Part shown: one piece after another, positions 4,608-59,473 of the stretch
Layout: the number at the start of each line of letters is the position of its first letter
Numbering within the stretch: the stretch's first letter is position 1
Origin: Isurus oxyrinchus
Taxonomy: Eukaryota
Length of the DNA: 64,000 nt
Direction of reading: 5' to 3'
NCBI GenBank assembly: GCA_026770705.1
Contig: JANJGN010000041.1
Location: forward strand, 1,302,001-1,366,000
Notes under the pieces: generated by a model
The model's database searches: none
What the model saw: only the letters and a program-made list of their open reading frames with translations
Told to the model about the DNA's origin: nothing
Program-made: the position numbers and the translations under genes

Positions 4608-5512
4608 TTGCATTACTGGGGATGGGCATCCTGTACCGGGGTAAGTGTGGCATCACTACCTTCACCACTCGATACCTGGTGGCTATAGGAACGGCAAATC
4701 TTCTGTTCATTATCACTGACGTCATAATGAACCACATCAAATTTTATTATTTTTCAGTACGCTACATGAGCATCACCCCTCTGTGTAGTGTTCAAGCTAT
4801 TCTGATGGGTGCGGCCAGAGACTGTTCTGTCTGGTTCACCGTCGCTTTCTTCTTTGATTGATTTGTGACCATCTGTTGCCAGAAGCTGAAAACAAAATAT
4901 TGCACCCGGAAAACTGCGGCGGTGTTTGCAGCAATAATCTGCGTTCCGTTCTATTTAAAGAACATCCCCAGGTACTTTACATTTGACCATGAACTGATAA
5001 TCAACAATGTGTCTTTATTATGCATTACAAAGGTAAACACTGTAACTGAAAACGGATGGCTGGCATGTACCTGGCTTGATAAAGTTTTAACCCCATTGCT
5101 CCCAATCACATTAATTCTGTTGCTCAACACACTGACCGTCGGACGGATTTTAGTGAGCTGTCGAGCCCGTAAGGTGCTGAGGGGTGAGAGTAAGGGAGAG
5201 AAGCGCAGTGACCCAGAGATGGAGAACAGAAGGACGTCTGTGATTTTACTCTTCACGATACCCGACAGCTTCATTCTCCTGTGGTTGCTGACTGTTAAAT
5301 TATTCTTGTATTCTAAAATTAGTGGACTTGTTTTTACCACCCAACCTGAGATAGTTTTTCAATACATTGGATGGATGTTGCGTAATTTAAATTGCTGCAC
5401 AAACACATTAATTTATGTGGTGACTCAGTCAAAATTCTGAGAGCAGATCAAGAGTTCTGTGAATTATCCGGTACCATCAATTATACAATTAATGAATGTA
5501 CAGAGGAGCTGA
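4608..5512 (+). pseudogene. GPR139-like class A GPCR pseudogene (main coding exon)
   Basis: Acceptor tttctccttctctctactccag ends at 4607. Translation ..ILYRGKCGITTFTTRYLVAIGTANLL..DCSVWFTVAFFFD*FVTICCQKLKTKYCT..DPEMENRRTSVILLF..NCCTNTLIYVVTQSKF*EQ. In-frame TGA at 4859-4861 (the R of DRF) and 5438-5440. No exon 1 seen in the window. Confidence 0.9.
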
Positions 5513-5669
5513 TAAAAAAGTCCAGAGGTCGCTCCCAATGTCTCCAGTCCAGTAATGGAACTCCCAATTCATGACCGGCAAATAGCAGAGAGACATTGGC
5601 TAAGAGATAAAGGCTGGGAGAGGGAAACTAAAATTCCACCTGTCCAGGATCTATTCTCATCAGAGAGGC

Positions 5670-6250
5670 GAATTCGATGAATGACAGCTGCATCTGCCAA
5701 TCAGGAATCAACTTCTGTTGATTCACTGCTGCCCACACAAATCAGTGAGATCTACTTGGTGATTGGCTGTTGCATCGACAAATTAGCCAATTCAACAGTT
5801 CACCCACAGCTGCCAATTTGTGATCTCACCTCGTGAATGACAATATATCAGCCAAGCTGGTAAACCAACCAGGTGACGTATATCATTTCAGCCAATCGGC
5901 AAGATAGCAGCCTGGCAGACAGCTGCATTCACCAAACAGGGAAACATTCTTGTTAATTAACAGCGACCTCTGTAAATGATCAACCTCCGACTGGGGAAAG
6001 ACAGAGATTTCATCCAATCAGGCAGCATCACCTTGTGACTGAGAGTACCTCTCAACAATCAGAGAGTTCCGCGCGGTAAATGCAATGGCCTCTTTTATTC
6101 AGGAACTCCTGTATGGACAAAGCAGAGCTACAGAGATGTGACTGTCATCTCAAATAACTAATCGAAATTTATGAAAGAACGATCATCATCCACAATCCTT
6201 AACGGAAACTTTGCACTGTCCGACTCACAGTTGCCTTATCCAATCACAGA
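5670..6250. repeat. Degenerate ~40-45 bp tandem repeat rich in CCAATC
   Basis: Repeated gacagctgcat...ccaatcagg variants. Confidence 0.5.
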
Positions 6251-57549: not shown

Positions 57550-58200
57550 GCCAGTTATGACCTCACCAGAATCAAATCTTCGAATTGCTCATTAATATTG
57601 CTTTGCAAGCAATGTGCTCTTATGGCCAAAAAATCATGCCAACTCCATCTGATAACAATGTCACCGTTCCCATTCTGGCATTAAAGTGCCCTCTTGATCA
57701 CGATGGGCTGCACCCATTCTGCATAGCAACTTTGCTTCGTTCTTTCTGCAATGAATTAGCGATGCATTCACCTGAAATTCTCCTCAGCATTGCCCAGCCA
57801 GCATATCAATCACACACATGATTGAGCAGCTCTCTGGAATAAAACTTCTCACTGGGAACCTGCATAATACTGTCACTCTGTACTGATTTTCAATGTACAG
57901 CCACGATGACAACTCCTGTGTCAACTTGCATCAGGCCTTTCCGAATGCTGGTCTTTTATTGAGCTCAGTGACTATTCTTTGGCCCTGTGTGTTTACCTTT
58001 CCATCTTTACCCACACAAGCGTTCAGATTATGTTCGTGTCCCTGGGCAATATTTTACCCTCAAACTCTAAGTCCTGTTGCACAGTCGTCCTTCCCACTAC
58101 TTATCACAACTATAGGTCACCAGCACGCATTGTACCAGTACCTCTTCCAGAGTATAATTCCACATGGCCCAAATTCTATTTTGTGCATTTATTTCCCACT
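57550..58200 (-). mobile_element. Possible LINE apurinic-endonuclease remnant
   Basis: The minus strand ..RGHFNARMG.. resembles the APE motif GDFNARxG; otherwise heavily decayed. Confidence 0.35.
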
Positions 58201-58568
58201 TCACATCGTAACAACACACATGGATTGGCTCTTTATACCTTTCACTTACCTTTTAATATTCAACATACCCAGCCGTTTGTATGCTTTCAAATTGTCCAAT
58301 TCAAATTTGCTTTCAGCAAACTCAATCATAATTGCAGAATAGTTGTCCAGTTTACTTTGACATTCGTTTCAAAAGCAGAATTATGAACTGACGTTTCTCT
58401 TCCCTATCCATTTTCACTGGGTCCCGTTTACATTTAGAACATGGTCACGTCAAAAAGCAGGTTGTGCATATTTGGGTCAAATGGACGATCCTTTGCTGCA
58501 ACAGGAAGAAGATTAATTATATTCATCTGTGTCGTCAACCTCATGCTCTCTCTATCTCTCTCTTACAG

Positions 58569-59473
58569 TTAATGTTGTTGCCATTGTGATTCTTTCAGGA
58601 GGAATGTGTGGCCTCTCCAAATGTATTACCCATTATATGATCGCCATGGCTACGGCGGATCTCCTGGTTGTTTGTGCTCAAGTCATGTTGAACAATAAGC
58701 TGTATATGTATTTACCTGCTTCATTCTTGACCATGAGCACGGTCTGCCCTCTAACTGTGACATTGACTTATGCAGTCATATCAGCTTCTGTCTGGTTAAC
58801 AGTGGGGTTCACCTTCGATCGTTTTGTGGCCATATGTTGTAAGAAGCTGCGAAAAAAATATTGCACGGAGACAACAGCAGTAGCTGTCATATCAGTGGTG
58901 AGTGTGTTGAGTTTTTTGATGAACATTCCCTGGTACTTTGCGTATGAACCAGCGTACATAGTGGACAATGTAAATCATGGTTGTGTACTAAAACTGACAT
59001 TTTTCATTTCTGATGAATGGGCCGCATTTGCCTTGCTTAACCTTGCCTTGACCCCATGTGTTCCATTTATTCTAATTTTGTTGCTAAATTTTTGGACGGC
59101 AAGATGTATTTTGGCAGCCAGTAAAGTTCGCAGGGGTCTCCGCGGTTGCAACAATGGAGAACATCACAAGGATACTGAAATAGAAAACCGAAGAAAGTCC
59201 ATTGTTTTACTCTTCAGTATAACCGGTAGCTTTATATTGCTCTGGACAGCTCCAATTATATATATTATTTCTCTGCATGTAACAATCACATCGATTTCTG
59301 GGACAAACGAGATTGAGACAGTTAGTTTCATGCTTGGATTCCTCAGTTGCTGCACAAATACATTCATTTATGTGCTGACACAGGCTAAGTTTAGGGAGGA
59401 GCTGAAGAGAGGAATACAGTATCTTGTGAAACTGTGCGTTAAAATAGGCAAATTACAGCTGAAAACCCATTGA
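58569..59473 (+). CDS. GPR139-like class A GPCR, exon 2 (spliced CDS 975 nt, 324 aa)
   Basis: Polypyrimidine acceptor ctctctatctctctcttacag; uninterrupted 7TM ORF with AMATADLL (TM2), SASVWLTVGFTFDRFVAICC (TM3), NIPWYF, TPCVPF, ENRRKSIVLLF, SCCTNTFIY (TM7) and helix 8 KFREEL. Confidence 0.95.

Follow-up and report, generated by a model that had tools for sequence, protein, structure and literature searches.

A large receptor family labelled as GPR139 in the shark Isurus oxyrinchus: separate ancestry and a candidate chemosensory repertoire

Introduction

A stretch of 64 kb from Isurus oxyrinchus (the window; positions 1302001-1366000 of the 7.09-Mb contig C41 in a 4.98-Gb genome) carries an intact class A GPCR gene together with broken copies of the same kind. 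From which receptors does this array descend, how far does it extend through the genome, and what might it sense? The original prediction took it for a birth-and-death cluster of GPR139-like receptors and a possible amino-acid or peptide sensing system of cartilaginous fishes. According to PMC10116579, the chemoreceptor sets of these fishes are very small and consist mostly of V2Rs (about 10-40), although the olfactory organs are large.

No description of the family was found in a full-text literature search, a search with most subscription journals outside its scope. Passages of a paper on the sensory genome of the catshark (PMC11979771) and of the Squalomix tandem-gene preprint (bioRxiv 2025.06.08.657570) make no mention of the family; the supplements of the preprint, with their tandem-cluster tables, may list it. 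Moreover, the string "GPR139" does not occur in the searched supplements of PMC8455134 (12 of 24), PMC10529500 (1 file) and PMC5278576 (7 of 10). Databases label the members "probable GPR139". The analyses below describe a real, large and apparently undescribed GPCR repertoire that is not GPR139.

Results

The intact gene and its broken neighbours

The intact gene has two exons, with a predicted product of 324 aa (Table 1). Splicing of the exon at 50169-50238 to position 58569 bore out the predicted short N-terminus and the phase-1 intron inside TM1. The pairing of these exons is supported because seven near-identical paralogues keep a spacing of 8.4-8.5 kb, and a basking-shark gene model (P0001) opens with the same exon 1. 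The closest named relatives of the gene are from the basking shark and the white shark (75-76%). Its product matches Pfam 7tm_1 with an E value of 9e-19 and has the class A residues N1.50, D2.50, R3.50, P5.50 and N7.49/Y7.53. The DRF and NTFIY motifs described earlier are both present; however, the missing NPxxY is not a family signature that sets a boundary to GPR139, because human GPR139, itself without P7.50, reads NFFLY. The idea of NTxIY as a novelty of the family relative to GPR139 was dropped.

Table 1. Receptor features in the 64-kb window (window coordinates)
Feature	Position	Strand	Description
Exon 1, intact gene	50169..50238	+	70 bases, 23 codons plus 1 base, GT donor; short N-terminus and first half of TM1
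Intron, intact gene	50239..58568	+	Phase-1, GT-AG, 8.3 kb, inside TM1
Exon 2, intact gene	58569..59473	+	TM1 end to stop; 7tm_1, DRF, C3.25-ECL2 cysteine pair, NTFIY
Proximal upstream region, intact gene	49870..50168	+	AT-rich site of homeodomain type, worn in the window gene; TTTAAA box
Broken copy 1 (exon 2)	4608..5512	+	AG acceptor intact; TGA at 4859 and 5438
Broken copy 2 (exon 2)	~36601..37240	+	Heavily decayed; three frames, several stops
Broken copy 3	~45106..45395	+	TM1-TM3 remnant; HMM positions 20-85, E 1.2e-5; tblastn match

The one intact and two decayed paralogues of the original prediction were found again, co-oriented on the plus strand, but a fourth copy, the TM1-TM3 remnant, had been overlooked; it lies a little 5' of an N stretch (45754-46172). 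Broken copy 1 (39% identity) does hold the two nonsense codons ascribed to it. Its first in-frame TGA replaces R3.50, and the normally conserved N1.50 and D2.50 are altered. A search for first exons of the three broken copies found none.

The window also holds sequences of other kinds. Between the receptor copies lies a tandem pair of SRCR-domain exons on the minus strand (20931-21233 and 19353-19653). Both are bounded by AG/GT; one has an open frame and the other is frameshifted. The pair is probably the remnant of a DMBT1/CD163-type gene and gave the only SRCR matches within 424 kb around the window. Adjoining it is a tandem repeat (21656-26870) with units of about 2.1 kb at 76% identity, whose long frames had no Pfam match. 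A Pfam search with seven other long ORFs was likewise negative. Decayed minisatellites, one with a 32-base unit in 54 copies and another of 52-56 bases, occupy 6900-8637 and 10014-12947, and a near-perfect palindrome (98%) of 201 bases lies at 43653-43853 inside a repeat family.

Size and turnover of the family

An exact TM3 motif from exon 2 matched the genome 1,465 times and an independent exon-1-plus-donor motif 1,394 times, with no match for either reversed control, and the few copies that would have spoken against an expansion were not what the count returned. In a protein search, all 130 sequences scored among 7,970 first-look candidates matched at E < 1e-91. Exon 2 was open in 23/40 motif loci of a sample that is not random, because it was taken from the first 100 listed and comes from contigs C7-C21 only. 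Scaling this fraction puts the number of intact genes at about 840, with a binomial range of roughly 600-1,050; the true number would be higher, since the motif is carried by a minority of divergent intact members (13/27 representatives and 28/82 distinct intact sequences), and lower if uncollapsed haplotypes are present, as equal-scoring copies on different contigs suggest. For comparison, at least 18 first exons of V2R-like loci were found, on C2.

Of the 21 exon-2 loci in a 424-kb region surrounding the window, two are intact, and one carries the TM3 motif. The median pairwise identity of the 27 intact representatives is 51%. Database relatives number 2,198 at 90% clustering, and 119 of the best 120 are named from sharks and rays, across which intact members occur, while the remaining one is unnamed. 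The window covers a short part of a birth-and-death array, whose family has more than 1,000 loci in the genome, and the proposed lineage-expanded turnover is upheld by the motif counts, the tandem copies and the 19/21 broken loci near the window.

Copies of the window gene that are 96-100% identical stand in 21.4-kb tandem units on C41 at 5.86-5.94 Mb and 4.70-4.73 Mb, showing very recent amplification. Most members of the family start with a 23-residue exon 1 segment, but in one subfamily (exon 1 of L038, L040, L041, L132 and L140) the N-terminus is long and made up of short repeats with many N-x-T glycosylation sites.

Ancestry

True GPR139 (on C15) and true GPR142 (on C22) are each single-copy in this genome, as are two conserved fish-type orphan receptors on C6 (orphan A) and C9 (orphan B). 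Orphan B, which is conserved in coelacanth and teleosts (L197, C9:126713131-126714114, minus strand), has an in-frame TGA in ECL2 that is either a recent loss or an assembly error. The phase-1 TM1 intron lies at the same site in GPR139, GPR142, both single-copy orphans and the window gene. Among named matches in a profile search, the nearest full-length ones from outside the sharks were the salamander protein P0453, a coelacanth protein and a teleost protein; a single-copy orthologue of P0453 was not found in this shark, where the best match was 37%. The clusters returned by an Atlas search were all either from chordates with a GPR139 label or from invertebrates and of FMRFamide/Srw type.

In a careful tree of 34 rows with long outgroup branches (reduced from 73 via 53), the family and the salamander orphan (P0453, P0509) formed a clade with support of 100/100. 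Together with orphans A and B they made one clade (98/96), to which two amphioxus proteins could be added (97/96). GPR139 and GPR142 formed a separate clade (100/99) with the family outside it, and forcing the family together with them was rejected (p-AU 0.019). Both results speak against the direct GPR139/GPR142 parentage first proposed, and "probable GPR139" is a database label. Furthermore, neither the genome search nor the tree revealed one-to-one orthology with bony-vertebrate genes. The phylogeny of these predicted receptors shows a separate ancestry: they descend from an orphan lineage whose copy number remained low in bony vertebrates.

Rinne et al. 2019 (PMC6504862) distinguish three such orphan sets, named GPR210A, GPR210B and one unnamed, and cartilaginous fishes are absent from the main text of that paper. 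The orphans of fishes and amphibians that carry the label "probable GPR139", given here by UniProt and RefSeq ids, likely correspond to its GPR210A/B sets, whose genes the paper gives by Ensembl id.

Ligand pocket and selection

Seven helices, a hairpin in ECL2 and a helix 8 are present in the predicted model of the window gene product (pLDDT 75.9). Its top Foldseek matches are peptide receptors, and the hairpin with its cysteine pair is of the peptide-receptor type, without an N-terminal lid. R3.50 and N7.49 do not vary in the 225 distinct members. The Trp/Phe site of GPR139 is given in PMC5430874 as F3x33, H5x43, W6x48, R6x51 and N7x38. All five residues are kept in 0/225 members and four in 6, and the window gene retains only W6x48. 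Because no member keeps all five, the predicted sensing of aromatic amino acids by the GPR139 mechanism is unsupported.

At 32 pocket sites set by generic numbering rather than from a bound structure, entropy was 2.13 bits, compared with 1.95 in the outer loops, 1.09 in the other TM sites and 1.15 on the intracellular side (pocket vs other TM and intracellular, p 1e-8). Uncorrected pN/pS over 15 disjoint pairs was 0.65 for the pocket, 0.58 for the loops, 0.31 for other TM sites and 0.29 for intracellular sites, and about 0.4 overall. The loops lie above the other TM sites and below 1. The synonymous rate is higher at pocket sites (0.22 vs 0.15), so that the contrast shrinks to about 0.45 vs 0.32. 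In five pairs of the window subfamily, the pocket value was 0.94 by pairwise counts (0.62-1.29). The family is under purifying selection; diversifying selection is not demonstrated, because no site class exceeds a pN/pS of 1. Across the predicted proteins, the alignment shows diversified pocket sites and a fixed intracellular face.

Promoters

The promoter set started from 98 exon-1 matches. Exclusion of 18 that lacked a start codon, and of matches whose flanks were short, left 73; these were collapsed to 26, and removal of a GC-rich outlier left 25. Many of them share an order of modules within 170 bases of the start: TGTTTGTT, a TAATTA-type site, TAATT beside a CCnTGGAG-like element, and TATA. 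In these promoters, which as paralogues are not independent and whose motifs were picked by eye before testing, the forkhead-type box TGTTTGTT occurred in 13/25 against 4/161 flank windows, the homeodomain site TAATT[AG] in 22/25 against 54/161, TATA in 12/25 against 26/161, and TCCCNNGGGA with one mismatch in 7/25 against 7/161. TAATT followed three bases on by an EBF-like core was present in 12/25 against 1/198, with eight spacings tried, and at the mouse spacing in 2/25 against 3/198. An NKX-like CA[CG]T[GT]GAG was found in 6/25 against 11/198. There was no enrichment of TAATGA (7/25 vs 43/161), a loose O/E motif (13/25 vs 59/161), the octamer (7/25 vs 69/161) or the strict NKX site (2/25 vs 8/198), and none of significance for the E-box CAGCTG (6/25 vs 22/161); the O/E consensus YCCCNNGGGR occurred in 1/25 promoters. 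The assignment of these sites to factors (Fox, Nkx, octamer, the B-cell set) is one that we presume.

The subfamily of the window gene keeps the homeodomain-type site and the TTTAAA box and does not have the forkhead box or the EBF-like composite. The two single-copy orphans have no such module in the 400 bases upstream. In V2R promoters, TATA was found in 16/18, EBF-like sites were weakly enriched, and the forkhead-homeodomain module occurred in 0/18. Cross-scoring between family and V2R promoters, for which 16 V2Rs were used after two near-duplicates were dropped, gave a weak positive signal in each direction (p 0.002 and 0.027); the family matrix scored 5.4 on V2R promoters vs 3.0 on their flanks (p 0.002).

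HD and O/E sites are present in the OR enhancers of the mouse (PMC8213819), as is an adjacent Lhx2/Ebf composite (PMC5608512, supplements 2 and 7), whose one published probe has a spacing of two. The composite spacing in the shark set is one base off this example, and the putative forkhead-homeodomain-EBF-like-TATA module resembles, and does not match, the mouse olfactory enhancers.

Two further observations were made on upstream regions. The V2R-like first exons L274-L295 (C2 188.8, 230.7-232.4 and 237.7 Mb) have TATA 40-90 bases upstream and share TTYCY-N-GGG. The outlier L034 (C15:126387345) is an exon-1-like match with an unrelated GC-rich upstream region and 35 bases identical to a C20 copy; it is possibly a moved or recruited exon.

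Discussion

Since the predicted pockets differ from copy to copy, the family is likely to serve as chemical sensors that have been overlooked. We give an even chance to an independently evolved chemosensory repertoire that would operate in sensory cells, with the nose as the most probable single site; the nose itself is a tentative placement, and the even chance also covers other sensory epithelia or neurons. It may be, and we put this forward with similar reserve, that in sharks and rays an orphan lineage of peptide receptors became a fifth olfactory family of vertebrates, of OR-like size (close to 1,000 intact genes in this genome) and with its own forkhead-homeodomain-EBF promoter code. Duplication would spread receptor copies, most of which would decay, and the survivors would alter pocket residues with the G-protein face held. 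Each intact copy would bind a different water-soluble ligand, peptides or small molecules, and all copies would feed one common G-protein route; in shark olfactory neurons this would be Go or Gq to PLC to TRPC2. Sparse expression in a single cell type would be driven by the compact promoter that the copies share. According to PMC10116579, Go and TRPC2 are present in every olfactory neuron of the catshark, and sharks seem to lack ciliated olfactory neurons. Against the olfactory reading, the strongest promoter motif is forkhead-type, which is no classic sign of an OR promoter, the forkhead-homeodomain module is missing from V2R promoters and from the window gene's own subfamily, and ciliated neurons are the source of the mouse HD/O-E grammar. 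In PMC11979771, the top-50 list for catshark brain plus nose contains no GPCR, and no V2Rs either. Four contig sets of guessed RNA origin contained short 80-90% pieces of the family, one running into the intron, and no exon joint; a fifth had no match to family exons. The Logan contig P0118 was rejected as a spliced family product because its start is intron-like. These contig results speak neither for nor against expression.

Variable pockets would fit immune receptors equally. Leukocytes or mast-like cells could use the family as receptors for microbial or damage-derived peptides in the manner of FPRs or MRGPRs, and the same turnover, the peptide-receptor fold of the predicted model and the SRCR exons within the array agree with this. 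The E-box, forkhead and EBF-like sites presumably fit a B-cell factor set as well. The octamer, however, is not enriched, the SRCR exons occur once in 424 kb, and homeodomain sites next to an EBF-like site are, to our knowledge, atypical for promoters of lymphocytes; we regard an immune repertoire as unlikely. Equally unlikely, in our estimate, is a set of nutrient or irritant sensors in gut endocrine, gill, skin or somatosensory cells, which would extend the gut/islet role of GPR142 or an MRGPR-type role. The NKX-like sites and the lack of the module in V2R promoters favour it, and forkhead, homeodomain and NKX-like sites together fit what we take to be an endodermal endocrine grammar; on the other side, the GPR139 amino-acid pocket is not retained, the strict NKX site is not enriched, and we know of near-thousand-gene repertoires mainly in olfaction.

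Passive amplification by unstable segmental duplication, with haplotype-inflated counts and few functional members, would account for the broken loci near the window, the 21-kb tandem units, the equal-scoring copies on different contigs and the lack of demonstrated positive selection. It is improbable in view of the overall pN/pS of about 0.4 (0.3 on the intracellular face), the divergence of the 27 intact representatives (median identity 51%), the intact members across sharks and rays and the four single-copy relatives that were each found once; many variant exon-2 pieces in DNA contigs of a related organism are a weak hint in the same direction. That the members are true GPR139/GPR142 paralogues sensing aromatic amino acids, as the best PDB sequence match (GPR139, E 1.6e-10), the common intron site and the database labels could suggest, is very improbable given the separate clade (p-AU 0.019), the single-copy orthologues elsewhere in the genome and the five pocket residues kept together in no member.

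The chemosensory reading would have wide consequences. If the family is olfactory, the accepted view that a few dozen V2Rs serve shark and ray smell would be overturned, being off by more than an order of magnitude. Whatever its tissue, the family would rank among the largest GPCR expansions of vertebrates, one that the automatic label GPR139 has concealed. It could also give leads to ligands of the low-copy orphans of fishes and amphibians.

In comparison with known systems, GPR139 and GPR142 are, like the family, class A 7TM receptors without a proline at 7.50 and with a phase-1 intron at the same TM1 site, and W6x48 is kept in 210/225 members. Unlike the family, they are one gene each against more than 1,000 loci, identity is only about 30-34%, P6.50 is mostly lost in the family (T in 150/225), DRF is a differing family feature in 211/225 members, and the C3.25 and ECL2 cysteines, present in 218/225 and 223/225, form a pair that is not aligned in GPR139. 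The GPR210-type orphans share one clade with the family, the salamander orphan being closest, but are low-copy and conserved. The OR, TAAR, V1R, V2R, FPR and MRGPR repertoires resemble the family in tandem clusters, many pseudogenes, a short N-terminus and a variable pocket with a fixed intracellular face, and perhaps in TATA promoters with homeodomain and EBF-like sites. These repertoires nevertheless have no homology to the family beyond 7tm_1, and two coding exons, a peptide-receptor ancestry and the forkhead box set it apart from them.
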